Shown in pieces: positions 1,474 to 21,310 of a stretch of 64,000 bases of DNA; position 1 is the first letter of the stretch, and each line of letters opens with the position of its first letter. The DNA comes from Planctomycetota bacterium (lineage in GTDB: Bacteria; Planctomycetota; JAJSAM01; JAJVHW01). The position numbers and the translations under genes were made by a program. The notes under the pieces are model-generated. The model ran no database searches. It saw only the letters and a program-made list of their open reading frames with translations, and was not told the origin of the DNA. The DNA is taken from NCBI GenBank assembly GCA_965248445.1, contig CBDFJG010000003.1, positions 864,001-928,000 of the forward strand, read 5' to 3'.

Positions 1474-4400
1474 ATGCCGGACTCGATCATCCCCGGACCC
1501 ACCCTTTTCGAGATCAGCTGGGAGGTCGCCCACCGCGTCGGCGGCATCCACACGGTCGTCTCCACCAAGGCGCGGACGCTCGCCGCGCGCTATCAGGGGG
1601 AACACCGCGACGACTACGTCGTGATCGGCCCCTGGCTGCTCGAACAGCACGATCCCGACGCGGTCCTCGACCCCGAACCTGCGTACGCGGACTTCGAGGA
1701 GTCCTGCCGCAAGCTGGGACTGCCGGTGCGCGTGGGCCGGTGGCGCGTACCGGGGCGGCCGCTCACGATCCTCGTGGAGTTCTCGTCCCTCTACGATCGC
1801 AAGGACGAGATCCTCGCCGATCTGTGGACGGAGCATCAGGTCGACTCCCTGTTCGGCGGCTGGTCGTACGTGGAGCCGGTGCTGTTCGGGCACGCCGCCG
1901 GCATGGTGATCGAGCACTGGTGGCGCGAGGTCGTGAACGGGCGCCGGCGCATCGCCGTCGTGCAGGCGCACGAGTGGATGACCGGCGCGGCGCTGATGTA
2001 CCTGTCGCGGCGGGTCCCCGAGATCGGAACCGTCTTCACGACCCACGCGACGGTCATCGGGCGCGCCGCCGCCGAGCGCGGTCTGCTCGGTGAGAACGCG
2101 CTCGGCGGCAAGACCCCGGCGGAGGCCGCCGCCGACCTCGGCGTGCGCGCCCGGCACTCCATCGAGGCGGCGTCCGCGCGACTGGCCGACGTCTTCACGA
2201 CGGTGAGCCGGATCGCAGCAGCGGAAGCCGCTGTCTTCCACGAACGCATCCCCGATCCGGTCCTGCCCAACGGCCTCGATCCCGACGTCCTCGCCGCGCG
2301 CATCGAGGGCGCCTCGCAGGAGACGGCGGCGGGCCGGCTGCGCGACGTCGCGTCACGCTTCCTCGGCGAGGACATGAGCGATGCAGCCGTCGTCTGCATG
2401 AGCGGACGCTACGAGTTCCGCAACAAGGGCATCGACGTCACGCTCGAGGCAGCCGCGGCTCTCAACCGGGAGCCGGGCCGCACGATCGTGCTGTTCCTGC
2501 TCGTGCCCGCCGGCAACTCGGGGTTGCGCCGGCGGGTGTCGGAGCGTCTCGCGGCCGCGGAGCCGGAGGGCGGCGGTCCAATCGGCATCTCGCTGCACCA
2601 CCTGCACGACTCCGACGGCGACCCGATCCTCGGGCGCTGCACCGAACTGGGCCTCGACAACGCACCCGGCTCGCGTGTGCGCATCGTGTTCTGGTCCGAC
2701 TATCTGCAGCCGGGGGACGGCATTCTCGGGCTGCGCTACGAGGCTGTGCTGCAGGGCGCCGACGCCACGTGCTTCCCGTCCTACTACGAGGCGTGGGGGT
2801 ACACGCCGCAGGAGAGCCTGGCCCTGGGCGTGCCGACCATCACCACCGACCTTGCAGGCTTCGGCCGCTGGGCGCAGGAGGAGGGTCTGGCCGGAGGCGA
2901 CTGCACGGTCGTGCTGGCACGACGGGATCGGGACGACGCCGACGTCGCCTTGGAGCTTGCCGCGACGCTCGAACGGCTGACGGACGCCGGCGTCGACCGC
3001 AAGACGCTGAACGACTGCTGTCGCACGGTCACGGCCGCCACGAACTGGTCCAAGCTGATCTCGGCGTACGACGACGCGCACGCCCGCGCCGCCGCCGCGG
3101 CGCAGGCGCGTGCGAGATCGCTGCCGGGCCCCCCGCCCAGTCATCGAGTGCCCGTGCGCTCGGCCGGTCAGAACGGTCGGCCACACGTGTTCGCACTGGA
3201 CGTCGAGACGCGCATCCCTCCGGCCATCGCGGGACTCGAGGAAATCGCGTCGAACTGGTGGTGGACGTCGGATGCGGCCGCGACGGCACTGTTCGAGGAG
3301 GTCTGCCCGGCGACCTGGGAGCGCGTCCGGCGCGCACCGATCCGGCTGCTGCGCGAGACGCAGCCCGCACGTCTCGAGGAACTGGCCTCGGACACCGAGT
3401 TCGTGGCGCGCGTCGACGAGACGGTCTCGCGTCTGCGGGCGTACCGCTCGCAAGCGCTGGACGAGCGCAACGTGTCGGCGCACCGGCCGGTCGCGTACGT
3501 CTGCGCCGAGTTCGGGCTCCACGAGTCGTTCCCGATCTACAGCGGCGGCCTCGGCGTGCTGGCCGGCGACCACCTCCGCGCGGCGAGCGACCTGGGCGTG
3601 CCGCTCGTCGCAGTCGGCCTGCTCTACAGGGCCGGCTACATGCGTCAGCGCCTGCGCGGGGGCATTCAGCAGGAGACCGAACCCGAGCGCGTGGATCCCG
3701 CCGACCTCCCTCTCACTGCCGCCGTAGACGCCGATGGCCGACCCGTCGAGGTCACGCTGCAACTGCCCGGCAGCGAGGTCGTCCTGCGCGCGTGGCGCAC
3801 GGACGTCGGCCGCGTACCGCTCTACCTGCTGGACGCCGACGTGCCGTCGAACCGGCAGGATGATCGGACCCTCACGCGGTCGTTGTACGACGGCGACCAG
3901 AGCATGCGTATTCGCCAGGAGATCGTGCTCGGTCTTGGCAGCGTACGGCTGCTGCGTGCCCTCGGCATCGAGCCGAGCGTTTACCACGTCAACGAGGGCC
4001 ACGGCGCGTTCACGGCGCTCGAGCGCGTGCACTGGCTCTTGCGGAACACGGGACTCAGCTTCGAGACCGCGCACGAGACCGTCCGCGCCACGACCGTCTT
4101 CACGACGCACACGCCCGTGCCCGCCGGACACGATGAATTCCCCGAAGACCTCGTGCGACGGTACTTCGGACACGCCGACCGCTGGTCCGGCGTGCCCTGG
4201 GAGCGCTTCATGGCTCTCGGAGAGGCAGTCGACAAGCCGGGCCAGTTCAACATGACCGGCCTGGCAGTGCGCTTCGCCGCGCGCGTCAACGGCGTGAGCG
4301 AGAGGCACGCCGAGGTGTCGCGGCCGCTGCTGCAGCGGTTTGCGCCGCAACTCATGGCAAGCGAGGTGCCGGTCCACTCCGTCACCAACGGCGTGCACCT

Positions 4401-5706
4401 CGGGCTGTGGACGCGGCCCGCGACGCGCGACGCCCTCGGCGCGTCGCGGTTCGATACGCTTGCCGATGCGTTCCGCGGCGCGACCGATTCGAGTGACGCT
4501 GCGCTCTGGCAGATGCGTGAGACGCTACGCAGCGACCTCCGCACGCACCTGATCGCGCACCTGCACAAGTCGTTCGCAGAACAGGGCGATTCGCCGGCGC
4601 TGCTCGGGCGCATCGAGGAGCAGCTGAAGCCGGACGCGCTCTACATCGGGTTCGCGCGGCGCTTCGCGACGTACAAGCGCGCAGGCCTCGTGTTCAGCGA
4701 GCCGGACCGCCTGCTCGACCTCCTCGACGATCCGGACCGGCCGGTGCGGCTTGTCATCGCGGGCAAGGCGCACCCGCGCGACACGGAGGCGCAGGAACTG
4801 CTCGCGCGCATCGGCACTCTCGCGCGTGACCCGCGATTCGTGGGACGCGTGATCGTGCTCGAGAACTACGACATGGGGGTCGCCCGCTGGCTCGTCGCGG
4901 GCGTGGACCTCTGGCTGAACACACCGAGGCGCCCCCTCGAGGCGAGTGGCACATCCGGGATGAAGGCGGCGGCCAACGGGGTCCTGAACCTGTCCGTCGG
5001 CGACGGCTGGTGGCTCGAGGGCGCCGACGGCGCCAACGGCTGGACCATCGGAGGCGATCACGGGCGGGACGCGACACCGGCGAACGATGCGCTGCACGAC
5101 GCGCACGACGCGACCAGCCTTCTCGGCCTCCTGCGGCACGAGGTGATCCCCGCGTTCTTCGAGCGCGACCAGCACGGACGGCCACCCGCGTGGCTGGCGC
5201 TCGTGCGCCGGTGCCTCGTCTCGCTGCCGCCGGCATTCGACGCCGCCCGGATGGTTGCGGAGTACCGCGAGTGGGCGTACGAACCGCTCGCGTCGGCCCA
5301 CGCGGACCTGGCACGCGACCGTTACAACGGCGCACGCGACGCTTTCCACGACCTGGAACGCGTCCGCCGCACGCTTCCGGCTGCGCGGATCACGTCGGCG
5401 TCCATCGGCGATGCGCACAGCGTCACCGTCGGCGACCGCCTGGAGGTCGAAGTCGAGATCGAACTCGGAGAACTCACCGACGGCGACGTCGTCGTCGAGG
5501 CGCTCGTCGGCCGCCGCGCGGACGACGGCGGCTTGGCCGAGGTCGAAGCCGTCCGCCTGACTCCGGACGGCGTGTCCGCCGCCGGCCACGCCCGCTACGT
5601 GGGAGCGTTGACCCCCCGCGAAGCGGGAGCCCTCGGGTATGCCGTGCGCATCCGACCCGACCGCGCCGGCGGCCCCGCGTTCGACGACCCCGTCGTCTGG
5701 GCCTGA
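1474..5706 (+). CDS. glgP: Fused GT3-type glycogen synthase-like domain and GT35 alpha-glucan phosphorylase
   Basis: N-half: FEISWEVAHRVGGIHTV, HEWMTG, GRYEFRNKG, SYYEAWGYTP. C-half: YSGGLGVLAGDH, NEGH, FARRFATYKR, EASGTSGMK (PLP lysine). Confidence 0.9.
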   Translation: MPDSIIPGPTLFEISWEVAHRVGGIHTVVSTKARTLAARYQGEHRDDYVVIGPWLLEQHDPDAVLDPEPAYADFEESCRKLGLPVRVGRWRVPGRPLTILVEFSSLYDRKDEILADLWTEHQVDSLFGGWSYVEPVLFGHAAGMVIEHWWREVVNGRRRIAVVQAHEWMTGAALMYLSRRVPEIGTVFTTHATVIGRAAAERGLLGENALGGKTPAEAAADLGVRARHSIEAASARLADVFTTVSRIAAAEAAVFHERIPDPVLPNGLDPDVLAARIEGASQETAAGRLRDVASRFLGEDMSDAAVVCMSGRYEFRNKGIDVTLEAAAALNREPGRTIVLFLLVPAGNSGLRRRVSERLAAAEPEGGGPIGISLHHLHDSDGDPILGRCTELGLDNAPGSRVRIVFWSDYLQPGDGILGLRYEAVLQGADATCFPSYYEAWGYTPQESLALGVPTITTDLAGFGRWAQEEGLAGGDCTVVLARRDRDDADVALELAATLERLTDAGVDRKTLNDCCRTVTAATNWSKLISAYDDAHARAAAAAQARARSLPGPPPSHRVPVRSAGQNGRPHVFALDVETRIPPAIAGLEEIASNWWWTSDAAATALFEEVCPATWERVRRAPIRLLRETQPARLEELASDTEFVARVDETVSRLRAYRSQALDERNVSAHRPVAYVCAEFGLHESFPIYSGGLGVLAGDHLRAASDLGVPLVAVGLLYRAGYMRQRLRGGIQQETEPERVDPADLPLTAAVDADGRPVEVTLQLPGSEVVLRAWRTDVGRVPLYLLDADVPSNRQDDRTLTRSLYDGDQSMRIRQEIVLGLGSVRLLRALGIEPSVYHVNEGHGAFTALERVHWLLRNTGLSFETAHETVRATTVFTTHTPVPAGHDEFPEDLVRRYFGHADRWSGVPWERFMALGEAVDKPGQFNMTGLAVRFAARVNGVSERHAEVSRPLLQRFAPQLMASEVPVHSVTNGVHLGLWTRPATRDALGASRFDTLADAFRGATDSSDAALWQMRETLRSDLRTHLIAHLHKSFAEQGDSPALLGRIEEQLKPDALYIGFARRFATYKRAGLVFSEPDRLLDLLDDPDRPVRLVIAGKAHPRDTEAQELLARIGTLARDPRFVGRVIVLENYDMGVARWLVAGVDLWLNTPRRPLEASGTSGMKAAANGVLNLSVGDGWWLEGADGANGWTIGGDHGRDATPANDALHDAHDATSLLGLLRHEVIPAFFERDQHGRPPAWLALVRRCLVSLPPAFDAARMVAEYREWAYEPLASAHADLARDRYNGARDAFHDLERVRRTLPAARITSASIGDAHSVTVGDRLEVEVEIELGELTDGDVVVEALVGRRADDGGLAEVEAVRLTPDGVSAAGHARYVGALTPREAGALGYAVRIRPDRAGGPAFDDPVVWA

Positions 5707-5736: not shown

Positions 5737-6981
5737 CTACTCGTAGCGCAGCAGCCGGTGCGCAAGCTCTGCGTCGCGATCGACCTGCGCCAGGCTCTCG
5801 TGGACCAGGTAGAGCTCCCACGCCGCCGAGTCGAGGTCGCGGGTCAGTGGCGCCCGCGTCCCGGTCGGACGCAGCTTCCCGAAATCGTCGAAGGACGGGA
5901 GCGCGCGCACGTCGTCGGCGCCGAGCACGCGCCGGATGCGCGGCAGCTCGCGGGGTTGGATGCCGTGCACGACACGCGCTTCGAGCCGGTCATACCGCTC
6001 GAGATTGACGTCGCTCGACCTGAGCGGCATGTCGGCGAGGTAGTGGCACGCGGCCAATTCGAGCAGGTTGCGGCCGTGCAACTTCGATGCGAGGATCGCC
6101 AGGTTCCCGCCCGAGAAGCGTGCTCCGACCTCGATGAGACAAGGGCCGCGGTCGTCGACCTTGACCTCCATGTGAATCGGGCAGCGCCGCAGGCCGAGCG
6201 TCTCGACGACCTGCGCCGCGTAGGCACTCACGCGGCCGAACGCCGGCGCGGCCGTCCCGATCTTGAACGTCTGATAGAAGAGATTTGGGATGCCGTGGCT
6301 CGCACGGCGGTCGTAGACCCAGACGTCCGTCACGAGCACGTTGCTCGCCGCGTCCACCAGGCCGTTGATCACGAACTCCTCCCCACCGACGAACTCCTCC
6401 AGCAGCACCTCGCCGCTGCCGCTCTCGAGCACGCGCTGGCAGTCTCGGAGCAGTGCCTGGTCGGTCGCCGGGAAATAGACGTCCTCCGAACCCGAGCCGG
6501 CCGTGGGTTTGACGACGATGGGCCAACGCCCCAGCCGCCGCTGGAACGCGAGGGCGTCCTCGCCGCCGGTGGCGACGGCAGATGCATTCACACGGGCGCT
6601 CCCGTGCTCGCGCAGCCACGCCTTCATCACCGCCTTGTCCCGGCATCGCTCCATCACGCGCACTGAGTTCCAGTCGAGACCGAGGAGATCGCTCAGTCGG
6701 GCACCGTGCAGCACGGTCTCCTCGTCCCACGGGATGACGCCCTCGAGCACGGGGAAGTGCGCGTGGATCTCGGCGGCCAGCGCGCGCGTGCTCGGGAACT
6801 GCGCGGCCCGGTAAGTGGCGACGACGTACTCGCCCAGCTCCCGCGACCACTTGTCGCGCCAGAGGACGTACCGCATCTCGTCGGTGAACACGGCGACCGC
6901 GGCCTTGCCCACGCTGCCGCCCAGGAACTGCAGCAGTTCCCGCGGGTACTGGCCGACGGGGTCGAGGATCAGGTACGGCAT
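5737..6981 (-). CDS. ATP-grasp domain protein (L-amino-acid ligase-like)
   Basis: RDKAVMK, PIVVKPTAGSGS, LLEEFVGGEEF, HMEVK...LIEVGARFSGG. Confidence 0.85.
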   Translation of the reverse strand: MPYLILDPVGQYPRELLQFLGGSVGKAAVAVFTDEMRYVLWRDKWSRELGEYVVATYRAAQFPSTRALAAEIHAHFPVLEGVIPWDEETVLHGARLSDLLGLDWNSVRVMERCRDKAVMKAWLREHGSARVNASAVATGGEDALAFQRRLGRWPIVVKPTAGSGSEDVYFPATDQALLRDCQRVLESGSGEVLLEEFVGGEEFVINGLVDAASNVLVTDVWVYDRRASHGIPNLFYQTFKIGTAAPAFGRVSAYAAQVVETLGLRRCPIHMEVKVDDRGPCLIEVGARFSGGNLAILASKLHGRNLLELAACHYLADMPLRSSDVNLERYDRLEARVVHGIQPRELPRIRRVLGADDVRALPSFDDFGKLRPTGTRAPLTRDLDSAAWELYLVHESLAQVDRDAELAHRLLRYE

Positions 6982-6989
6982 AGTTCCGT

Positions 6990-8231
6990 TCAGACGTACC
7001 GAAGGAGATCACGGGCGGCAACAGCATCTGCCGCCACCTGCTCGGCGTCGGGATGCAGCAGGTAGATCTCCCACGCCTTCGTGTTCACATCGCGGCTGAC
7101 GGGCACGCACATGCCCGGCCGGCGCAACATCCCGACTCCGGCGAACGACGGAAGGGCCTCAACCTCGTCCAGCCCCACAACGTCGGCGACCCGCGGCACC
7201 TCCTCCTCCTGGATGCCGCTCAGGATGCGTGCGGACATGGCGTCGTAGTGCTCGTAGTCCACGTCGTGCGGTGAGATGCGGATGTCGTCGAGGTAGTGGC
7301 ACGTCGCGAGTTCGAACAGGCTGTGCCGGTGCAGCTTCGACGCAAGCATCGCCTGGTTGCCCCCGGCGAAGCGGGCCCCGACCTCGATCAGGCACGGGCC
7401 GTCGGCGTCGACCTTCGCTTCCATGTGGAACGGCGAGCGCCGCAGGCCGAGCGCCTGCACGACTTCGGTGGCGTAGTCGGCGAGCGAGTCGAACACCTCC
7501 GCGTCGCTGCCGACCTTGATCGACTCGAAGTAGAGGTTCTTCTCACCGTGGCTGTCGCGCTTGTCGTACCACCAGACGTCGGTGATCAACACCTCGCCCG
7601 CGTGATCGACGAGGCCGTTGATCGCGTACTCCTGACCGCCGACGTACTCCTCGAGGAGCACTTCGCCGAGGCCGCGCTCCCTCACGCTCGCGCAGCCGTC
7701 GATCAGTTCGGCCTCGCTGTTCGCGAAGAAGACGCTCATGGAGCCGGCACCCCCGCTCGGCTTCACCACGATCGGCCAGGCGCCAACTGCCTCCTGGAAC
7801 TGGAGCGCTTCCTCGTCCTCGGCCACGACACGCGAGCGGTTGACGCGCACGTTCCCGTGGTCACGCAGGTACGCCTTCATGAGCGATTTGTCGCGGAAGC
7901 GCTCGATGACCTCGCGCGTGTTCCAGTCGAGTTGCAGCCGTTCGTTGATGTCGGCTGCCAGGAGGATGTGTGTCTCGTCCCACGCGACGATCCCGAAGAA
8001 ACCGCCGGGGAACTCGGCCTTCAAGGCGTCGGTCAGTTCACCCAGCCGTTCGCGGTCCACGGCATGCTCGGCGACCACGTTCTCGCTCAGCAGGCGGCGC
8101 CACTTGTACTCCCACATCGCCTGTCGCTTCGGCGACGACAGCAGCACCACCGCCTCGAGTCCCATCCTGTCCAAGAACTGCTTCTGGTTCGCAGCGTACG
8201 TGTCGGTCGGGTCGAGGATGAGGTACGGCAT
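6990..8231 (-). CDS. ATP-grasp domain protein (paralog of 5737-6981)
   Basis: Same MPYLILDP start; RDKSLMK, VVKPSGGAGS, EEYVGG, LIEVGARFAGG. Confidence 0.85.
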   Translation of the reverse strand: MPYLILDPTDTYAANQKQFLDRMGLEAVVLLSSPKRQAMWEYKWRRLLSENVVAEHAVDRERLGELTDALKAEFPGGFFGIVAWDETHILLAADINERLQLDWNTREVIERFRDKSLMKAYLRDHGNVRVNRSRVVAEDEEALQFQEAVGAWPIVVKPSGGAGSMSVFFANSEAELIDGCASVRERGLGEVLLEEYVGGQEYAINGLVDHAGEVLITDVWWYDKRDSHGEKNLYFESIKVGSDAEVFDSLADYATEVVQALGLRRSPFHMEAKVDADGPCLIEVGARFAGGNQAMLASKLHRHSLFELATCHYLDDIRISPHDVDYEHYDAMSARILSGIQEEEVPRVADVVGLDEVEALPSFAGVGMLRRPGMCVPVSRDVNTKAWEIYLLHPDAEQVAADAVAARDLLRYV

Positions 8232-8238
8232 CTCAGGA

Positions 8239-9465
8239 TCAGCCCACGTGGATCTCCAGCCGCTCCCCGGCGTACGTCAGCAACTCCCGCAGCGTGTCGT
8301 AGTCGGGGTGGCGCAGGCGGAACCAGACGTTGTTGAGATAGCCCTTGTGGATCGGGTCGGTGGGCGTGCCGCGGCCCGGCAGGCGCCGATCCCAGACCCA
8401 CGGGCCGATCTTTGCGGCCACCTCGCGCAGTCCTCCGTACCCGAGGATCCGGCCGTCCTTCTGAGGGCGCACCTGCACCGATCCGGTGGCGAACCGCCGA
8501 CTGGGCTTCTTGGCCCGCCGTCCGTGCAGCGTGACCGCCGCCCACTCGAACCAGGTGTCGATGTCGTTTCCCGCGGAGTAGAGGTCCCAGATCCGTTCGC
8601 CGGGGGGCCGGGCACCGATCTCGGAGAACTTCAGCCCCTTGGGGCCGAAGAACCACTCCATGTGCGTCGCAGCGGTGCCGATGCCGAGCGCCTGGATCAC
8701 CTTGCGTCCCATCACGCGCAGTTCGTCGTAACTGTCCAGTTCGACGCGGTTCGTCGACATGATCAGCGGCGAGAGCCGCCGGTCGCTCAGCGCCTCGAGC
8801 ACGCTCGGGTAGTAGTGCGAGATGAACTCGTGCTCCGGCACGCCGTCCACCGAGATCGTGTCGTAGAAGCCTTCGTGGCCCTCGACGAACTCCTCGATCG
8901 CGACGGATTCGCCACGGTGCACGTTCAGGCTGACCGCGGCCTGCTCGAGTTCGACCACGTTGTCGACGCGGTGAGTGCCGAGTCCGCCGAGCGCGGACCG
9001 CGGCTTCAGGATCAGCGGGAACCCCTCACGCTCCGCGAACGCGTGCAGTTCGCGCTTCGACGACACGGCCGCCGAGGCGGCACACGGCACGCCGGCTGCG
9101 CGCAGCGCCGCCTTCATCGCCGGCTTGTCGCGGCAGAGCGTCGCCGAACGGACGGAGAGACCCGGCAGTTCCAGCGCCTCGCGCACCTTCGCGACGTGGG
9201 TGACGATCGCCTCGTCCCCCGTCTCCACGAGATCAACTGAGCGGACGCGATCGACTCCGCGCACCGCATCGAACACCGCTCCCGCGTCGAGCAGACTCGG
9301 CACGTGGACGTAGTGATCGAGACACGGCTTGAGCTCCGGGTCGAGCCGGGACTGCGGCGTGTGGCCGATTCCGGTCACCAGCGCACCGGCCTGTTTCAGG
9401 CCGCGCACCATGTCCGCATAGGCGGAGTAGAGGTCCGGTCCGACGAACGCAACGTGCTTTGTCAT
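8239..9465 (-). CDS. ATP-grasp domain protein (more divergent)
   Basis: RDKPAMK, LILKPRSALG, EEFVEGHEGFYD, HMEWF, EIGARPPG; ATG at 9465 (MTKHVAF). Confidence 0.85.
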   Translation of the reverse strand: MTKHVAFVGPDLYSAYADMVRGLKQAGALVTGIGHTPQSRLDPELKPCLDHYVHVPSLLDAGAVFDAVRGVDRVRSVDLVETGDEAIVTHVAKVREALELPGLSVRSATLCRDKPAMKAALRAAGVPCAASAAVSSKRELHAFAEREGFPLILKPRSALGGLGTHRVDNVVELEQAAVSLNVHRGESVAIEEFVEGHEGFYDTISVDGVPEHEFISHYYPSVLEALSDRRLSPLIMSTNRVELDSYDELRVMGRKVIQALGIGTAATHMEWFFGPKGLKFSEIGARPPGERIWDLYSAGNDIDTWFEWAAVTLHGRRAKKPSRRFATGSVQVRPQKDGRILGYGGLREVAAKIGPWVWDRRLPGRGTPTDPIHKGYLNNVWFRLRHPDYDTLRELLTYAGERLEIHVG

Positions 9466-9549
9466 GGGCAACCGCGCAGTCGAACCGAACGCTCTGAGCG
9501 GCAGCAACTTCTTCGCCGCGCGAGCCCGGACACCGCCCAGCCGGCGGCG

Positions 9550-9879
9550 CTAGAGGTGCAGGATGCGCTCGGACTTGGTGACGCTGATCCGCTTGATCCG
9601 GTCAAACGGGATGTACTGCTTCACGGGCTCGGCGGCGACCTTGCGGCCGGCCGCCGTGAACTCTGTGACGACCACGATGTGATCCGAGCCCATCGCCGTG
9701 GCTTTCGCCTTGTAGAAGCCCGTGCGCAGGGAGTAGCCCACCGGCGCTCCCTCGTACGACTCCGGGTTCACGACCGTGACCGGGCCGCCGACCAGCGAAT
9801 TCAGGATGTCGCGGTAGCTCCGTGTGTCGGTCGCCGACTTGGTGGCGCTGATGCCCGTGCGTGCTGTGTCCTCACTCAT
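9550..9879 (-). CDS. Small hypothetical protein
   Basis: AAGGAGGA RBS upstream of ATG 9879; GC3-rich codons. Confidence 0.6.
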   Translation of the reverse strand: MSEDTARTGISATKSATDTRSYRDILNSLVGGPVTVVNPESYEGAPVGYSLRTGFYKAKATAMGSDHIVVVTEFTAAGRKVAAEPVKQYIPFDRIKRISVTKSERILHL

Positions 9880-10059
9880 CGTCTTTCCTCCTTGGGCGGG
9901 CGATCCTACGGTCCTCGGCGCCCGCGCGCGACTTCGAGGTCTCATCCGCTGCACTCTCCGCCCCGAGGCGTGAGATGGCCAAGCGGAAGGCCGACGACGA
10001 GGCTCTGGGGTCGCTGTTCCGCGGATCAGGCAAGGGAGCCCGCTGCAGGTGAGGCAGGG

Positions 10060-11223
10060 CTACGCAGGCGCGTCGATCGTGAGCACCAACAACGTCGTGA
10101 TGTGGCCCTCCAGCAGGAGCTTGATGTGCTGGCCGCCGGCGGTCGTGAAGAACGGCTCGACGTCGTACCGCCGGTCGAACTCGTGATCGCCAATGTCGAA
10201 CTCGATTGGGCGGAGCCGGTAGCCCGCCGCGCGCAGGCGCTCGGCCAGATCCCCGATGTCGCTCTCGCGGTACAGCACGTTGCCACCGGTCTCGACCGTG
10301 TCGAGCGTCGATGACACGTTGAACTCGGTGGTGTGCACGGCGAGTCCGCCGGGCCGTAGCAGCTTCGCTGACTCGAGCACGAACTCGATACCCGCGCCGA
10401 GGCTGCCCAGGTGCTCGAGCGCGCACGAACTCCAGATGAAGTCGACGGGGCCCTCGCCCGCGAGCGTCGACAGATCGCGCATGTCCGCGTGGGCGAAACG
10501 CACCCTCTCCGTGAAGAGATCGCGATCGACGATCTTGGAGTGCCAGAGAGCGTCTACCCCGGCCGCGTGCTGATCCGTCATCGCCCAGCGCTGCGATCCG
10601 CTGTCGCTCGCCGCCAGATCCGTAGCGAGGACCTGAGCACCGGCGCGCGCGAACACGGACGCAAGCGGCTCCTTGCCGACCGCGAAGCCAATCCCCGTGC
10701 GACCGTCCGAGAGCACTCCGTGCCGGTCCAGGAGTTCAGCGATCACGCACCACTCCCACGACTTGCGCGTGTACTGGTAGTCGTGCAGCGACTCCGGACG
10801 CCACGGTCCGGACATCGCCTCGTGCCGGCGGCGATACCAGTCGGTCAGGAAGTCGGCATGCTTGCAGACTCCAGCGCTGGGGCCGCTCGACACCGCGTTC
10901 GCGCCGTCGCCCGTGAGTCGTTGCTCGAGCCGCCGCACGTCCATACTGAGCTGAAGAACGTCGTGCTCCAGCTTGCCGACGCGCGCACCCTTCGGCATGG
11001 CACGGAGCCGTCTGCGGACGCTCCTCGGAGTGACCTTCACGAGGCAGCGCACTGCGAAATCGCGAAGGCCCACGCTCGCTCTCCATCGCCCGAGTTCCTG
11101 GCCGCGATTCTGGTTCGCGGCCCGCGAGTATACGTAGGCACGGAGACCGCCGTCACCGGCCGAGTGGGCAGGCGCTTTGACCGCCCCAAACGCACGTGTA
11201 AGCTCCGATCCAGGTCGGTCCAT
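10060..11223 (-). CDS. Class I SAM-dependent methyltransferase (true start probably downstream of 11223)
   Basis: RKSWEW, GIGFAVGKEPL, VLATDL, DFIWSSCALEHLG, LRPGGLAVHTTEFN. Confidence 0.8.
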   Translation of the reverse strand: MDRPGSELTRAFGAVKAPAHSAGDGGLRAYVYSRAANQNRGQELGRWRASVGLRDFAVRCLVKVTPRSVRRRLRAMPKGARVGKLEHDVLQLSMDVRRLEQRLTGDGANAVSSGPSAGVCKHADFLTDWYRRRHEAMSGPWRPESLHDYQYTRKSWEWCVIAELLDRHGVLSDGRTGIGFAVGKEPLASVFARAGAQVLATDLAASDSGSQRWAMTDQHAAGVDALWHSKIVDRDLFTERVRFAHADMRDLSTLAGEGPVDFIWSSCALEHLGSLGAGIEFVLESAKLLRPGGLAVHTTEFNVSSTLDTVETGGNVLYRESDIGDLAERLRAAGYRLRPIEFDIGDHEFDRRYDVEPFFTTAGGQHIKLLLEGHITTLLVLTIDAPA

Positions 11224-11258: not shown

Positions 11259-13502
11259 ATGTCGCTCAAGACGCTCGCGCTGATCGGCTGCGGCTGCCTC
11301 GCCGCCTGCGCCACTTGGTTCTTCTTCATTCGTCCGGCGCCGGACGCGGTCGCGGAGGGCGAACTGCCGGAACAGCTCGCGAGCGGCCGCTTCGGGCTCT
11401 CGGAAGAGAAGCAGCGCTACATCTGGGACATCGAGCACCTCTCGTTCGTCCTCAGTCAGGACGTCGCGCCGATCTTCAAGGACGCGAGCCGCGGTGGCGA
11501 TCCGGCGCCGCTGGTCGCGCTGCTCGATCCCGCGTTCGCGGGTACCGTCCTGACAGGCGGCGGATCCACGCTGACGCACGGCCCGGTGACCGTTAAGACC
11601 TGGCGCGCCGGACGCGCCCCCGCTGGAACGGTCGACCGCGCCGCGCTGGTCGACGAGATGGCGGGCTGGGGACGGACGTTCGAGACGATCGACTCGGTCG
11701 GCATCCACTTCACCGGGCTCTCCCCTGTCACTCTGGGGGCGCTCGACGGGCCCTGGACGTCGCGCTGGGAGATACGCATCGCGGGCAGCCGCCCGGGCGG
11801 CACGCGCGCCGAGATGCTGGTGGACTGCTCGTTCGACTTCTCCCGCCTGACCGAGACGCCGGCGAAGGAGGAGGGCTGGATCACCGCGGCGGCGGTGGAG
11901 CGCTCCTGGCTCAACACGAGCACCTCCCGGCTCATGGAGGAGATCACGGACACGACAGGAATTCGCGTCGCCCTGTTTCGCGACAACTGGAAGCGCTTCG
12001 CGCCGCCCTACGAGCCAGTCACCGGCGGCGCCCACCTGCTGGACTTCGACCGCGACGGGCACACCGATCTGCTCATCACCGGTGAGCCGCGGCACTACCT
12101 GTACCGCGGTCGCGGCGACGGGAAGTTCGACCAGGTCACCGAGGAAGCGGGCTTGCCGGTCGGCAGCCGGATCGTGGGAGCGTTCGTGGCCGACCTCGAC
12201 GGAGACGGGTTCGAGGACTTGGTAATGAGCGCGGTGATCGCGGGCCGCGAGGTGGAGACGCACATCTTCCGCAACAGCGGGACGGGAACGTTCGAAGCTG
12301 TCTGGCCGGACCAGCACGACCTGGCCCGCTTCGTCATCTCGGATCACATGGGCGTCGCCGACTACGACGGCGACGGGCTGGTCGACCTGTACGTGCCCAA
12401 GGGAGGACTCCCGCCCCCCGGCGACGTCGGCGGGCCCCGTTGGCTCGGCGACCGCACGAGTCCCGAGGGACTGCTTCTGCGAAACCTCGGCAACTGGCGT
12501 TTCGAAGACGTGACAGAGGCTGCCGGGCTGGCGGGCGAGTCCGTCGACACGTTCGCGATCGTCTGGCTCGATCTTGAGCCTGACGGCGACGCCGATCTGT
12601 TCCTCGCGAACCACATGGGAGCGAACGTCTTGTGGAAGAACCAGGGCGACGGCACGTTCGAGAAGGTCGCGCTGCCCCGCCAGGGTTTCGGCGGGTTCAG
12701 CATGGGCGCGACGGCCGGCGACCTCGACGGCGACGGCGACCCGGACCTCTACGTCGCCAACATGTACTCGTCGGCGGGCACCCGCGTCATCGCGAACCTG
12801 CGCCCCGAGGACTATCCCGAGAATGCGCTCGACTTCATCCAGGGCTTCGTCACCGGGAACGAGCTCTACGTGAACGACGGAAGCGGGGATCTCACGCCGA
12901 GCGGCGTCGGCGCCGGGGTTGCCAACAGCGGCTGGTCCTACGGACCCGCAGTCGTCGACCTCGACGGCGACGGCGCGCTGGATCTCTACGCGCCCGCCGG
13001 TTTCCAGAGCGTGCAGCGCGGCGACCCGGACGGATGAAGCTGCGTCTGGCGGGCTGCCGTGTCGCAGCCCACGCAGCGCATGCTCGAACTCGAGCCGGTC
13101 GGCGAGGTCGACACGGAGCGCGGCGAGTTCTGGCTGGGAAACCCGTGGCGCGTCGGAGAGACCACGCGCAACCTGAGCTCGTTCGAACCGAACCAGGTGT
13201 TCCTGAACATCGGCAGCGGGAAGTTCGCAGACGTCGGACACCTCAGCGGGGCGAACTCCGACGGCGACGGCCGCGGTGTCCTGGTGGCCGACGTGACCGG
13301 CGATCTGCAGCCCGACCTGCTCGTCCGGCAGAGCGGCGGAGGCGCGCTGCGCGTGTACGCGAACCGCTTCCCTGCCGCGAGCCGCCTCGAGGTCTCGCTC
13401 GAGGGCACGAAGAGCAACCGCCTCGGCATCGGCGCCACCGTCGTCGCCGAGGCCGGCGGACTCCGCGTCAGCCGGCAGTTGTTCCCGACGGGCAACTTCA
13501 GC
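11259..13502 (+). CDS. FG-GAP/VCBS-repeat, CRTAC1/ASPIC-UnbV family protein with in-frame UGA at 13035 (candidate Sec); 3' end cut by IS66
   Basis: N-terminal hydrophobic segment; many DxDGDGxxDL repeats; frame continues after UGA (SCVWRAAVSQ...LEGTKSNRLGIGATV, UnbV-type) up to the IS66 end at 13503. Confidence 0.75.
13039..13077 (+). promoter_or_regulatory. Putative bacterial SECIS-like hairpin
   Basis: GCTGCGT(13039-45)/ACGCAGC(13071-77) and GGGCTGC(13051-57)/GCAGCCC(13064-70) are exact reverse complements; loop CGTGTC; starts 1 nt after the UGA. Confidence 0.6.
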
Positions 13503-15002
13503 GTAACCGTTCACCCCTTCGTCGCGAGCCAGTATCCAGATCGTTCGGCCATCGGTCGATCAAGATGTTGTGGGCGAGCGGCAGGACGAGGATCTGCGGG
13601 CGATGGTCGAGGGCCTTCTGGCCTGGATCGAGGAGCTGGAGCGTCGCGAAGCGAAGCATCTGCGCCGCATCGACGAGCTCGAGTCGCGTCTGAAGCGTGA
13701 CTCCCGCAACAGCTCGAGGCCTCCGTCGTCGGACCCGGCGTGGTCCAAGCGCCGTCGCGGCCGAAGGCCGCGTAGCGGTCGCCAGCAGGGCGGACAGCCG
13801 GGCCATGAGGGCACGGCGCGCGAGCTGGTGGATCCGTCCAACGTCGATGAGACCAAGGAGCACCGTCCCGACCTCTGCGACGCGTGCGGACACGACGATC
13901 TCGAGCAGGGCATCGGCGATCCGTACCGGCACCAGGTGACGGTGCTCCCGCGCGTGCTCGTCACGGTGCGGGAGCACCGGCTGCACAAGGCGCGGTGCCG
14001 GCGCTGTCGTGCGGTCACGACGGCGGTCCTGCCCGATGGCGTGCCGACCGGGGCCTTCGGTCCGCGGCTGACCACACTTGCCGGCGCGCTGCGCGGCGTG
14101 TACCGCGTGAGCGTGCGGGAGACGCAGCGGCTGCTCGGTGAGATCTTCGGTGTGAAGATGTCGCTGGGCAAGATCAGCGACTGTGAGCGTCGGCTCAGTG
14201 ACGCTCTGCACTCGTCGTACCTCGAAGCCCTCGGGGCAGTCCGCACGTCGCTGCGAGCCAACGTGGACGAGACGTCGTGGAAGGAACGGGGCCGGGTGTG
14301 CTGGCTGTGGGCGGCGGAGAGCGAGCACGCCACAGCCTTCGGGATCGATCGCCGCCGCAGTGCCAAGGCGAAAGGGCGGCTGATCGGGCGGCGCTTCGGT
14401 GGCACGGTGATCAGCGACCGGATGGGTGCCTACGAGTCACACCCACTTGCCCGCCGCCAGCTCTGCTGGGCGCACATCGAGCGCGCCTTCCGTGCGCTGG
14501 CCGAAGGCCCGTGAGGACATCGCCGCTTCGGCAACAAGGGCGTCATGATCGCGCAGTCGGTCATGCGCAGCTACCGGCTCTTCGGTGAGCACGGCGACCG
14601 TGACCGGCTGCAAGGCGAAGCCGCTGTGCTGCGCGGACGGCTCGAGCGACTGATCGCGAACGACGACTCGGCTCTGGCCAACCATCTGCGCCCCCGCGTG
14701 GTCGCCCTCTTCACCTATGCGCGGACCCAGGACGTGAGTCCGACGAACAACGCCGCCGAGCGCGCGGTCCGCAAAGCGGTGCTCTGGCGCAAGGGCTCCT
14801 TCGGAAGCCAGTCCGCTCGCGGACTCCGCTTCGCCGAGCGCGTGTTGACCGCCGCGGCCACGCTGCGACGCCGTGGCGACCAAGTCTTCGACTTCCTCGC
14901 CGACTCGGTCGCCGCGCACCTCACCGGCGCCGACCCGCCCGTCATGGTCCCGATGCCCGTCGCACGCTGAGGCTCACACGCTGTCAAGGGGTGAACGGTT
15001 AC
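13503..15002 (+). mobile_element. IS66-family element (single-ORF, ISBst12-like), copy 1, 1500 bp
   Basis: Terminal IRs GTAACCGTTCACCCCTT...AAGGGGTGAACGGTTAC; flanks do not match (no TSD). Confidence 0.92.
13570..14970 (+). pseudogene. IS66 transposase with nonsense mutation
   Basis: TGA at 14512-14514 where the other copies have CGA (EGPRGH); motifs NSSRPPSSD, DET, QLCWAH, TNNAAER. Confidence 0.85.
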
Positions 15003-17435: not shown

Positions 17436-19104
17436 CCCGAATCGTTCACCAGCCGGGAATCTGAGCGGGCCGTCGTCTGTCTAAGTGCTCGTACTCGCTA
17501 GTACTTGCACCGACAGGAGCGCCGGCCCGATGACGACAGACTGTAGCCCGCAGGGGACCCTCTTCGCGGGCATCTGTGGACGCACCGCGGTGACGCGCTT
17601 CGACGCCGGTACCGTGACGAGCGACGGGGGCGTGCTGCTGCTCGAGCGGACCGATCGTCGCATCGATCTGCTCTCGCGGTTTGCGCGCTGCTTCGGGGAC
17701 CACCGGGACCCGCGTCGGGTCGAGCACACGGTCGGCCAGATGCTGCGTCAGCGGGTCTTCGGGCTGTGCGCGGGCTACGAGGATCTGGTGGACCACGACC
17801 ATGTCGGCAAGGACCCGCTGTTTGCCGCGGCGTGCGGCAAGCGCGAGGGTGCTCTGGCCACGCACCCGACGCTCTCGCGGCTCGAGACCACGCAGCTCGG
17901 CGCCACGGCACAGACGCGCTACGCCAAGATCGAGATGGACCAGGAGCGCGTGGACAGCGTGCTCAGCGACGTCTTCTGCGAGGCCATGGGGCCGGAGGAT
18001 CCGGGCCTGCTCGTGCTGGACCTGGACCACTCCGACGTGCGGCTGCACGGCCGGCAGGAGGGCCGCTTCTTCCACGGCTACTACGGGCACTACTGCTACC
18101 TGCCGCTGTACGTCTTCTGCGGCGAGCACCTCTTGCTCGCTCGGCTCCAGACCGCTGACAGAGATCCCGCGCGCGGAGTCGTGGACGAGCTCCGTGCGCT
18201 GGTCTTACGTCTGCGGCGCCGCTGGCCCCGGGCCAAGGTGCTCGTGCGCGCAGACTCGGGCTTTTGCCGCGAGGAGCTGATGGCCTGGTGCGAGGCCGCC
18301 GGCCACTTCTACCTGCTGGGCATGGCGCGCAATGAGCGCCTTGAGCGACACGTCGAAGACGCGCTCGATGAGGCCGCAGCCCGTGCCGTGCAGACCGGCC
18401 GAGCAGCCCGGGTCTTTCGCGACTTTGCCTGGACCACGCTGGGGAGCTGGAGCCAGAGGCGTCGCGTGGTCGCCAAGGCCGAGCACCTGCCGGGCGGCAA
18501 GCGCAATCCCCGCTTCGTGGTGACCAATCTGCCGCCTCGTAGCTGGAGCAGCAAGCGTCTCTACGAGCAGCTCTACTGCGCCCGGGGCGAGGCGGAGAAT
18601 CGCATCAAGGAGCAGCAGCTCGAGCTCTTCGGCACCCGTCTGTCGGTGCACACGATGCAGGGCAACGCCGTGCGGATGGCCATGTCGGCCATGGCCTACG
18701 TCCTGACCTGTGCGCTGCGACGCATCGGTCTCGCCGGCACCGAGATGGCGCGTGCGCAAGCCGGCACGATCCGCCTGCGGCTGCTCAAGATCGGCGCGCT
18801 CGTGCGGATCACGACGCGCCGGATCTGGGTCTCGATGTCCTCGTCGTGGCCCTGGCAGCACGTCTTCGAGCGCTGCGCGCAACGACTGCTGGCATCCCCG
18901 AAGCCGACCTGACGTCCCGCCGCGCCGTCCGCCACACCACCGCCCGGCCTACGGTCTGCCCACACCGCAGAATCCGCGCCGTTTCGGCCGCTCACTCGCG
19001 TTGCCCTTGTGGCAACGACGACAGCATCCGCCCTCGCCTGGCCAAGATCTGACCCTGTGGACTCCGAAAGCACCGTCATCGCGACGTCTCGTGAACAGAT
19101 GCGG
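17436..19104 (+). mobile_element. IS1380-family element, copy 1, 1669 bp
   Basis: Ends CCCGAATCGTTCAC...GTGAACAGATGCGG; 4-bp TSD CTAG on both sides. Confidence 0.92.
17530..18912 (+). CDS. IS1380 transposase
   Basis: TSDGG, HGRQEGRFFHGYY, VRADSGF, YCARGEAENRIKE motifs. Confidence 0.92.
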   Translation: MTTDCSPQGTLFAGICGRTAVTRFDAGTVTSDGGVLLLERTDRRIDLLSRFARCFGDHRDPRRVEHTVGQMLRQRVFGLCAGYEDLVDHDHVGKDPLFAAACGKREGALATHPTLSRLETTQLGATAQTRYAKIEMDQERVDSVLSDVFCEAMGPEDPGLLVLDLDHSDVRLHGRQEGRFFHGYYGHYCYLPLYVFCGEHLLLARLQTADRDPARGVVDELRALVLRLRRRWPRAKVLVRADSGFCREELMAWCEAAGHFYLLGMARNERLERHVEDALDEAAARAVQTGRAARVFRDFAWTTLGSWSQRRRVVAKAEHLPGGKRNPRFVVTNLPPRSWSSKRLYEQLYCARGEAENRIKEQQLELFGTRLSVHTMQGNAVRMAMSAMAYVLTCALRRIGLAGTEMARAQAGTIRLRLLKIGALVRITTRRIWVSMSSSWPWQHVFERCAQRLLASPKPT

Positions 19105-19258
19105 CTAGCGAGTGAGTGTGACTTGGACGTGCTTGACTGCCGTGTGGGTCCGTTGAGCCCGACAGACGGCAACCCCTTGCAGGGAGTCGACGGCACCGAC
19201 CGCGCCTTCGTGTCGATCCCCAGCAAGGAGACTCTTGGGCGGCCCTGGGGCAGAAGGT

Positions 19259-20611
19259 CTACTCGCGTTCTGTCTCCCGGGTCCACACGCGGACTCGCGC
19301 TTCGAAGTCGCCGGAGGCACCAACCGGCCGGACCGCTGTCCAAACGACGAGGCCGTTCGTGGATGCCTCGCCCCCGTCGACGGAGATCCGGGAGACTCGA
19401 GTGATTGATCCGAACGCCGGCCGCGCCTCCAGTCGCGTTTCTTCACTCTCGCCAGATCCAACCGTCACCTTCAAGGACCATGTCGAGAGGCTGCGCCCGT
19501 CCTCGACGATGACGTCGAAGTCTCGGATCACAATCGCTACGCGATCGTCGCCACTTCCAAACTCCAATGTGATGTCCGGGGTGCCCGACGACCTGACCAC
19601 GCGTGACGCACCGCCGGCCCAACCCTCGGGTGGGATCGAAAGTGCTAGCGCACCGGACTGCATTACCCGGTCGATGGCCCCGCTCGCCCCGTCCTTCGCA
19701 AGGTCACTCAGCGACATTCCGAAGTGTCCGAGCAGCTGATCTGCCTTGCCCCGCGTCGCCTGAGCAATGGCTTCACCGAGGCGACTCGCGCGGCCACGTA
19801 GAACGCCCGAAGCGGTACGCGGAACAGGTCGGCTGTTACCGGTTCGCTTGATCGCGTACTTCACGAGGTCGGTGCTCTCAAAGTCGTACAGATCCCGCTC
19901 GACCAGCCGAGCAGTCACTCGTGCATCGCGGTCCTTGAGGGCCTCGCGGGCAATACCAACTGCTGGCGCCTTGTCTGCACCGAACAACCACGCGACCTTT
20001 CCAAGTGTAGCTGCCACATATCGAACTTCCGCACGACGATCCCGGGAGAGTACGCGCGCGACCGACAGAACATCGGGCGCTTCGTGCAGCCCAAGCGCGG
20101 GAGCCGTAGCTGCTTCCCAGTCGAAGCGAACTGATGACGAGAGCGCGTACGGCACGAGATCCGGAACCCCGTCGATATGAGAGAACCTGCGACGCTCGAT
20201 GATGTACCGAAGTCCGCGTTGTTGTCGCTCCGTCAACCGATAGCGCGGGGCCTCGCTTGACCGAGCCTTCTCGTGACGAAGAAGGTAGTCGATCTCTGGC
20301 GTGGGCGTATCGGCCGCTCGGTCCGCGAGGCCCGACATCGCTGCGATCTCCAAAGCAACATCCCCGCTCGGCGCGCCGCTGAGTGTGACGGCAACGAGCT
20401 TGTGTAGCGCCTCGATCTCGGCATGTGAGCCGCCACCCTTCGGTTCGTGGCCGCTCGCTGTAGTCGCGGAAGCCACCGCGAGGAGGAGCCCAAGACTCCA
20501 TGGCCCGAATTTTGTCCGCTTCCGCTTCCACAACGCCCGCGGACCCCGCCCCTGTGTGACTACGCGGCGCCTAGTTGTTCTCAATCGTAATCTCATTTGA
20601 AGCTCGGCCAT
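19259..20611 (-). CDS. Hypothetical exported protein (start uncertain)
   Basis: 450-aa ORF with a signal-like segment (WSLGLLLAVASATTASG); visibly lower GC than flanks. Confidence 0.5.
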   Translation of the reverse strand: MAELQMRLRLRTTRRRVVTQGRGPRALWKRKRTKFGPWSLGLLLAVASATTASGHEPKGGGSHAEIEALHKLVAVTLSGAPSGDVALEIAAMSGLADRAADTPTPEIDYLLRHEKARSSEAPRYRLTERQQRGLRYIIERRRFSHIDGVPDLVPYALSSSVRFDWEAATAPALGLHEAPDVLSVARVLSRDRRAEVRYVAATLGKVAWLFGADKAPAVGIAREALKDRDARVTARLVERDLYDFESTDLVKYAIKRTGNSRPVPRTASGVLRGRASRLGEAIAQATRGKADQLLGHFGMSLSDLAKDGASGAIDRVMQSGALALSIPPEGWAGGASRVVRSSGTPDITLEFGSGDDRVAIVIRDFDVIVEDGRSLSTWSLKVTVGSGESEETRLEARPAFGSITRVSRISVDGGEASTNGLVVWTAVRPVGASGDFEARVRVWTRETERE

Positions 20612-21310
20612 TCACTCTCTTGCCCGCATGGACTCGATATGTGTTGTCACCAACGAGATAGTCGGCGTCCGTCACCGTCTGCGGAACTCCGACCGGTACA
20701 CCGGTCACTATCTGGTCAACGAGCGCCAGGCCAGTCGAGGACTCACGATAGATGTAAGCTTCGTCCGCATCCTCACCGCTGAGCTGAAATGTGATCGTGT
20801 TTGTTGAAGCGATCGGGTCATTGGTAACCGAGTTGATGACAACGTTGCCGTTGAACTCGAGCTCACTCTCAGGCACATAGGCAGCAACGGGACGCCAAGT
20901 GAGCACATCGGTGCCTTCCACCTCGCCTTGGGACCGTTGCCGCCACACATTCTCGTCTGTTGTCGTGTAGGACACCGTCGCCGTCGATTGAGAGGCTACG
21001 TTTCCAGACCAGCCGGTGGGCTGAGACGGCGTCGGGATCGATGGGAACGCATAGTCCAGAGACTCATCGCCCAAGTTCTCAAGAGAGTACGTGAACGTGA
21101 TGTCTGTCCCACTTGTGTATGAGACCTCGGAAGAGAACCGTGCCACCGCCTCAGGCACTTCCCACCACACAATATCGCCGTTTGCGTCCAAAACGGGGAC
21201 CAGGTTGCCTTGGCCGTCAAGGTCCATGTCGGGTCGCCCACGCCAATAGAAGTCCATTTCAAGGTCAAGTGCATTGTTCAGGATCTGTGTCGGTATGTCT
21301 CCGAGACTAA

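Follow-up and report, generated by a model that had tools for sequence, protein, structure and literature searches.

Putative U-x-C selenoproteins with a CRTAC1-like FG-GAP propeller, represented by an IS66-interrupted gene of a Planctomycetota bacterium

In the bSECIS model, as given in the accessible part of PMC13188914, a loop of 3-9 nt stands on an upper stem of 4-16 bp, a G lies in the first two loop positions, the spacing is 16-37 nt and the folding energy is at most -7.5 kcal/mol. The locus described here shares with the SelB/SECIS-dependent genes in that part of the source an in-frame UGA, a hairpin within the ORF, selABCD in the genome and a loop 20 nt downstream with G at its second position, followed by U, but differs from them in its beta-propeller scaffold and in the rarity of Cys homologs. 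The motif UxC is also recorded there in the thioredoxin-like Sec.2 and in the SO_0444-family Cu/Zn efflux transporter, which share it with our protein but have unrelated folds (thioredoxin and membrane transporter, respectively), and the accessible part of the family table of PMC13188914 contains no FG-GAP, ASPIC or CRTAC family. The best sequence and fold match was murine CRTAC1 (PDB 9etn), which likewise consists of an FG-GAP propeller followed by ASPIC/UnbV. However, identity to CRTAC1 is 15-22%, and the protein here has an extra N-terminal domain and a helical insertion bearing the Sec; the sequence alignment to CRTAC1 does not cover the Sec region.

Members of the wider family have been noted in print once before. 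S9 Table of Kim et al. 2016 (PMC4807772) lists four ASPIC/UnbV FG-GAP genes as selenoprotein candidates and, as at our locus, the FG-GAP plus ASPIC/UnbV gene was split in two by annotation at the UGA. A SECIS was predicted in three of the four, and the closest homolog had Gly, comparable to the Ser/Ala/Gly clade described below. In contrast to the present analysis, this is a table entry only, without family analysis, motif or function, and a term search of the main text found neither ASPIC nor FG-GAP. The rows aligned with Gly are probably of the wider type rather than members of the U-x-C clade. Term searches for FG-GAP, VCBS, CRTAC and ASPIC gave no match in the main text of the 2026 review PMC13188914, in the text and supplements of deep-Sep and BSepDB or in the main text of the Haft and Gwadz preprint, and no NCBIfam selenoprotein model scored above cut-off for six proteins. 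A literature search for selenoproteins linked with FG-GAP, ASPIC, UnbV or CRTAC1 returned nothing relevant (the family may be listed in Haft and Tolstoy 2025 or in Deng et al. 2026), and no paper pairing enediyne with UnbV was found. A first-pass annotation of this DNA had placed the protein outside the classic selenoprotein families; this agrees with the catalogues checked, but not with S9 Table as far as the wider family is concerned. New here are the thioredoxin-free U-x-C clade and a CxxC correlation in its relatives.

The features of the gene, which lies in a window of 64,000 nucleotides (the whole stretch of DNA analysed), are collected in Table 1. As the first-pass annotation had stated, a 592-aa ORF (11259-13037) terminates at the TGA at 13035-13037, and translation of this codon as U yields GDPDG-U-S-C-VWR. 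The frame had been said to continue for 155 codons. The first 155 codons do belong to the gene, but the frame remains open for 220 codons, to a TGA at 13698-13700, and everything beyond the 155th codon (from 13503) is IS66 element sequence. The UnbV-type domain reported after the TGA is present at its start but is incomplete: Pfam matched PF13517 in five stretches of the read-through and gave no UnbV_ASPIC, which was found in 16/16 post-codon halves of intact homologs. The complete C-terminal ASPIC/UnbV domain (PF07593) is absent in this copy and present in intact clade members. Contigs from three runs of one sample, perhaps the source sample, matched 12732-13529 without any difference; since these read contigs are identical over the region, the TGA is unlikely to be a consensus error, though they are not independent support.

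Table 1. Coordinates of the interrupted gene, its predicted elements and the associated insertion (window positions unless a contig is named)
Feature	Position	Strand	Basis or remark
Gene, 5' part, intact; 748 codons with TGA read through	11259..13502	+	ORF list, translation, Pfam
N-terminal hydrophobic stretch (residues 1-29), signal or membrane anchor	11259..11345	+	Sequence only
N-terminal alpha/beta domain, no named family, residues 30-224	11346..11930	+	Well predicted in model
FG-GAP beta-propeller, Dx[DN]xDG repeats, CRTAC1-like	11931..13370	+	Pfam, model, fold match
In-frame TGA, codon 593; predicted selenocysteine (Sec), first residue of predicted helix	13035..13037	+	
Cys595, +2 Cys of U-x-C motif	13041..13043	+	99/99 readable homologs with Cys at +2
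Lower 7-bp stem, found in this sequence only	13039..13077	+	Not conserved
SECIS upper stem-loop (predicted); conserved pairs +15..+20 with +27..+32; loop CGUGUC with G22, U23	13051..13070	+	
ASPIC/UnbV domain start, cut short	13371..13502	+	Remaining 56 codons elsewhere on contig
8-bp target-site copy ACTTCAGC	13495..13502	+	Partner flanks IS at G000:C3 70027-68528
IS66-family element, 1500 bp, terminal inverted repeats; interrupts gene	13503..15002	+	
mnmA-like gene, truncated	L358:12245-12937 (G000:C3 ~70240-70940)	minus	

The TGA column was conserved, as expected from the first-pass proposal of a selenoprotein. Each of the five closest homologs in related genomes contained one TGA in the same column. 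A metagenome search pattern in which the Sec codon and the +2 codon were both left free matched at least 120 stretches. Among the 120 matches listed, 108 were true homologs, all with TGA at the column (100 distinct), and +2 Cys was present in 99/99 readable distinct members. The remaining 12, non-TGA matches, were dropped as unrelated by HMM score (<7 bits vs at least 40 for true homologs), as was one match of the genome pattern. A profile search of the phylum matched the family in 116/401 genomes; among the 150 matches listed (121 others unlisted), 133 had one TGA, 16 had none and one had three. A wider-family pattern, which demanded Ser at +1 and hence excludes the Cys clade, gave 116 named loci, namely 85 with TGA, 30 with other residues and one unrelated. 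Named records with the family were from Planctomycetota, Verrucomicrobiota, Acidobacteriota, Latescibacterota and Archangium, and up to eight family copies were present per genome. A genome contig scan with a single protein as query gave no match, and a search of representatives yielded mainly generic FG-GAP repeat proteins and little else. An unrelated conserved family with the motif C-S-T-F...PDG-x-x-C/S-LW...WPR-x-SHHD was also matched by the search pattern (L269, L291, L296, L298, L309, L327, L336, L341 and L342).

Cys at the Sec column, which the first-pass annotation had regarded as supporting evidence, was found in a distant clade (seven genomes; also database proteins P0021 and P0083). 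In six of these genomes no selA or selD was found and G304 has both; the column reading for G304 does not extend to its two further paralogs, L366 and L367. Inside the U-x-C clade no Cys form was found among the database proteins and the metagenome matches listed. Neither Sec nor Cys was present in 19/24 non-TGA relatives of one set and in 30/30 of the wider-family pattern, where selA was present in 23 of 30 genomes. Non-Cys residues in homologs had been named as counter-evidence in the first-pass annotation. They do occur in distant paralogs (Ser, Ala, Gly, Glu, Asp), but there the hairpin pairing is lost and the partner CxxC mostly lost, and we take them to mean that the reactive site was lost repeatedly. 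With good support, 22 segments that have Ser, Ala or Gly at the column (L114, L120, L123-L125, L146, L147 and others) form a clade nested among TGA members, and its records are mostly named Acidobacteriaceae, Terriglobales or Bryobacterales. At L054:2462-9976 tandem paralogs have TGA and GAG at the column; the GAG copy keeps the hairpin sequence and the CxxC, which suggests a recent loss.

The hairpin downstream of the TGA, with its two 7-bp stems, 6-nt loop and G at +22 (13059), was reproduced by a minimum-energy fold (stems 13039-13045/13071-13077 and 13051-13057/13064-13070, loop CGUGUC). The full hairpin reached -25.8 kcal/mol (z -2.19) and 7/200 shuffles were equally stable. When synonymous codons were redrawn with the protein kept fixed, an upper hairpin as stable arose in 2/2000 trials. 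The loop (6 nt, G at its second position), the stem of 7 bp and the spacing of 20 nt agree with the bSECIS model as far as it is given in the accessible part of PMC13188914, and the upper hairpin alone (-13.3 kcal/mol) lies within its energy limit.

Covarying hairpin pairs had been named in the first-pass annotation as possible support. Covariation was found in the upper stem, but the lower stem paired at chance level. In 114 U-x-C-type homologs the upper six pairs were 97.8% paired, and 0/1000 column shuffles (which take no account of relatedness) were as high; slid registers of this stem gave 19-64%. The lower stem was paired at 35.5% vs a shuffle mean of 35.5% and was rejected as a conserved feature. 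Pair +20:+27 was kept in 114/114 of these homologs (U-A 97, C-G 9, U-G 8) and pair +18:+29 in 110/114 (U-A 96, C-G 14), and some stem-pair changes altered the amino acid on one side and were synonymous on the other. The loop residues G22 and U23 were present in 113/114 and 110/114 members, respectively. The codons forming the stem were near-invariant (GCT 87/99, GTC 92/95, TCA 76/79) whereas flanking codons were free to vary. Judged from these alignments, the U-x-C hairpin is evidently under selection. In the wider family the hairpin stands three bases nearer to the TGA than in the U-x-C type; its upper stem was 93.6% paired in 128 TGA members vs 50.6% in 53 non-TGA members, and pair +15:+25 was formed by five pair types in 120/128 TGA members and was paired in 22/53 non-TGA members (these counts leave out L229, which has the TGA but whose frame closes after 13 codons).

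The Sec machinery presupposed by the first-pass proposal is present in this genome: selA, selB, selD and tRNA-Sec (selC) were all found. The tRNA-Sec is the only tRNA with a UCA anticodon found here, and selD itself carries one in-frame TGA. Two FG-GAP/ASPIC paralogs whose matched part has no stop lie ~8-12 kb from the tRNA-Sec gene (L001, G000:C2 ~463000-468000). In the phylum, selA was present in 107/116 family-positive vs 188/285 family-negative genomes, kin not being independent. It was also found in 74/80 named genomes that hold a TGA member (the test covered 80 of the 85 TGA loci, the other five being further copies from genomes already included). Four selA-negative genomes contained TGA members; three of them have selB, and in the fourth, G223 (90% complete), no selA, selB, selD or tRNA-Sec was found. 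The G223 member L026 (G223:C36:100533-101078) is of the U-x-C type with TGA and hairpin. Because the TGA column is conserved, the upper stem covaries, the Sec machinery is present and a distant clade has Cys in this column, TGA 13035-13037 is very probably a Sec codon. It is very likely, and strongly supported, that SelB binds the hairpin in the ORF, with its G22-U23 loop, and inserts Sec at UGA-593.

The structure of residues 30-748 was predicted with Sec modelled as Cys (pLDDT 90, pTM 0.91). In this model an N-terminal alpha/beta domain is followed by the propeller and by the beginning of a beta domain. The propeller contains an inserted helix that starts with Sec, and its last repeat is supplied by the part downstream of the TGA. 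The match to murine CRTAC1 had a Foldseek E of 7.3e-15 and, for PDB 9etn_A, a Z of 28.0 and an rmsd of 3.0 over 410 aligned residues. Residues outside the repeats, including M, N, Y, S, R, W and E, were invariant or nearly so. The N-terminal domain gave no Pfam match and Atlas returned hypothetical clusters only, and its profile matched 9/40 upstream regions of other members (E below 1e-4). Its pattern of strands and helices is, in our view, presumably reminiscent of NTF2-like domains. Residues 1-29 contain LAAC, which we take to be a lipobox-like motif, and export of the protein is likely from its hydrophobic N-terminus. The earlier description as a secreted beta-propeller with a U-x-C motif is supported. 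Intact members would be single proteins of ~800 residues and not two genes, with a predicted layout of a membrane-anchored alpha/beta domain, the FG-GAP propeller and ASPIC/UnbV, and with Sec at the head of the propeller's inserted helix. Such a position favours an ionised nucleophile, as in thioredoxins, and by analogy the same may hold for this Sec. Selenocysteine is costly and usually kept only at catalytic sites; its conservation therefore suggests that a fold without known chemistry has an active site here.

A tree of 212 segments placed Sec on most branches, with 11 state changes, and the five Cys members formed one clade. The U-x-C type was also a single clade (34/34, support 0.998), with +2 Cys in 33/34 of its members and in 0/125 other Sec members of the tree; further Cys residues at +9 to +25 were present in 47/99 U-x-C members. 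In many other family members an AhpC-TSA or Redoxin domain follows ASPIC/UnbV (model of a thioredoxin-fused member: pLDDT 83, pTM 0.76). No AhpC-TSA match was obtained in the three U-x-C clade members checked, and the separated tail of the present copy closes after 56 codons, with no fused TlpA-like CxxC domain. Among 47 members with >300 codons downstream of the column, the CxxC of the fused thioredoxin was intact in 36/38 TGA members vs 1/9 non-TGA members, and the eight losses represent ~three independent events at most on the tree. Some Sec members have neither +2 Cys nor fused thioredoxin. No conserved neighbourhood was found among 67 neighbours at 12 loci, nor among 12 downstream ORFs, and recurrent redox or metal-resistance genes were absent from the neighbours at 11 U-x-C clade loci.

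The CxxC correlation in the sister clades points to redox chemistry. Sec is proposed, with fair confidence, to be a redox-active nucleophile that attacks an oxidised extracytoplasmic substrate, bound by the propeller, and to be resolved by the +2 Cys or by the fused thioredoxin. In the U-x-C clade the +2 Cys would form a selenylsulfide with the oxidised Sec and so resolve it, and a separate periplasmic thioredoxin would reduce this bond; in many sister clades the fused TlpA-like CxxC domain would do the reducing. Oxidised thiols of envelope proteins are our best guess for the substrate. The explanation as a whole, a U-x-C clade of exported CRTAC1-like selenoproteins with a redox role, is the probable one, if by no means secure. 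It is more tentatively suggested that CRTAC1-like propellers constitute a large class of extracytoplasmic selenoenzymes in which Sec is recycled by a +2 Cys or a fused thioredoxin. If this were true, CRTAC1/ASPIC-UnbV would in bacteria be the fold of a redox enzyme, and few of the selenoproteins so far overlooked in soil and marine bacteria might be as common as these. Since gene callers split these genes and the catalogues checked omit them, the selenoproteomes of these phyla have probably been undercounted. For tests, the U-x-C clade offers a compact protein whose resolving Cys is defined; an intact homolog is needed because the copy in this window is broken.

Insertion of Sec could also serve a different chemistry. 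Sec may act in the propeller pocket as a nucleophile without redox function (in bond cleavage, or in acyl, thioester or alkyl transfer), with Cys or thioredoxin merely repairing accidental oxidation; its place at a helix start in the model, the (near-)invariant residues outside the repeats and the Sec members without either partner would suit this, but the loss of CxxC tracks the loss of Sec, and +2 Cys in 99/99 suggests a routine part in the cycle, which makes this reading rather unlikely. A soft-metal or metalloid site (Cu, Hg, As) formed by U-x-C on an exported scaffold, without catalysis, appears quite unlikely: the further Cys at +9 to +25 and the occurrence of UxC in a Cu/Zn efflux transporter family (accessible part of PMC13188914) fit such a site, but no recurrent metal-resistance genes stand beside the 11 loci and the 125 other Sec members do without the +2 Cys.

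The two readings in which no Sec is inserted are weaker than those in which it is. UGA could be read as Ser, Ala, Gly or Trp, for which opal-suppressor tRNAs are one possible route, the hairpin then being a read-through or regulatory signal. The natural replacements at the column are mostly Ser, Ala, Gly, Glu and Asp (Gly in PMC4807772) and G223 combines the TGA with a lack of detectable Sec genes, in favour of this reading; against it, the sole UCA-anticodon tRNA found here is tRNA-Sec, the hairpin agrees with the bSECIS model in the accessible part of PMC13188914, the family is enriched in selA genomes (kin not independent) and Cys homologs exist, so that it is very unlikely. That the TGA is a true stop, in a conserved two-gene split or through a nonsense mutation, is extremely improbable, even though gene callers terminate here, ~30 database proteins terminate at the same PDG-like motif and TGA is the commonest long-ORF stop in this genome (66%). 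The column is always in frame and was TAA or TAG in none of the sequence sets examined, whereas these two codons make up 34% of the stops of long ORFs in this genome; the sequences being related, this comparison is no formal test. The codons just after the TGA align with paralogs that have no stop there, the propeller needs the downstream repeat in the model, and TGA is spread across the whole tree. In the U-x-C clade 57/59 closed downstream frames were 200-258 codons long, 258 being the maximum, and 55/100 distinct members had no in-frame ATG within 59 codons after the TGA (GTG and TTG uncounted).

While Sec insertion remains the preferred reading for the family, the copy in this window is interrupted. 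The last 56 codons of the gene (G000:C3 below 68528, minus strand) follow a second IS66 copy of this contig, at a distance of ~800 kb and in opposite orientation. The 8-base flank of the window copy recurs to the right of that second copy, and the 56 codons beyond that flank resemble the C-terminus of homologs. With 748 codons here and a 56-codon tail behind the matching flank, the ancestral gene had ~804 codons. The element has 40 full-length copies, only 2 of which have matching target-site flanks, and 15/46 left IS flanks pair with the right flank of another copy; this suggests that the genome was scrambled by IS recombination or was mis-joined at IS copies in the assembly. The read contigs extend only ~27 bases into the IS, compatible with recombination or mis-joining, and under either reading the end of the ASPIC/UnbV domain is missing from the assembled gene. 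As the assembly shows, IS66 inserted into the gene, and recombination between IS copies would then have separated it from its last 56 codons. This copy is likely a recent pseudogene. A mnmA-like tRNA 2-thiouridylase gene (PF03054) is truncated just before the IS copy that bears the tail. The transposase of the window IS has a premature TGA at 14512-14514, where pooled IS contigs read C at 14512; it was rejected as a Sec codon, the nonsense change being limited to this IS copy.

Other features of the window were also noted. A methyltransferase-like gene and three ATP-grasp genes in tandem lie on the minus strand (5737-11223), are transcribed divergently from the Sec gene and possibly form a small biosynthetic cluster. 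Two DDE_Tnp_1_4 transposase genes of equal length and opposite orientation flank ORFs of 450 and 228 aa, neither with a Pfam match, and this region (17485-22930) has the appearance of a composite transposon. At 1474-5706 a protein of 1410 aa is encoded in which glycogen synthase and carbohydrate phosphorylase domains are fused.
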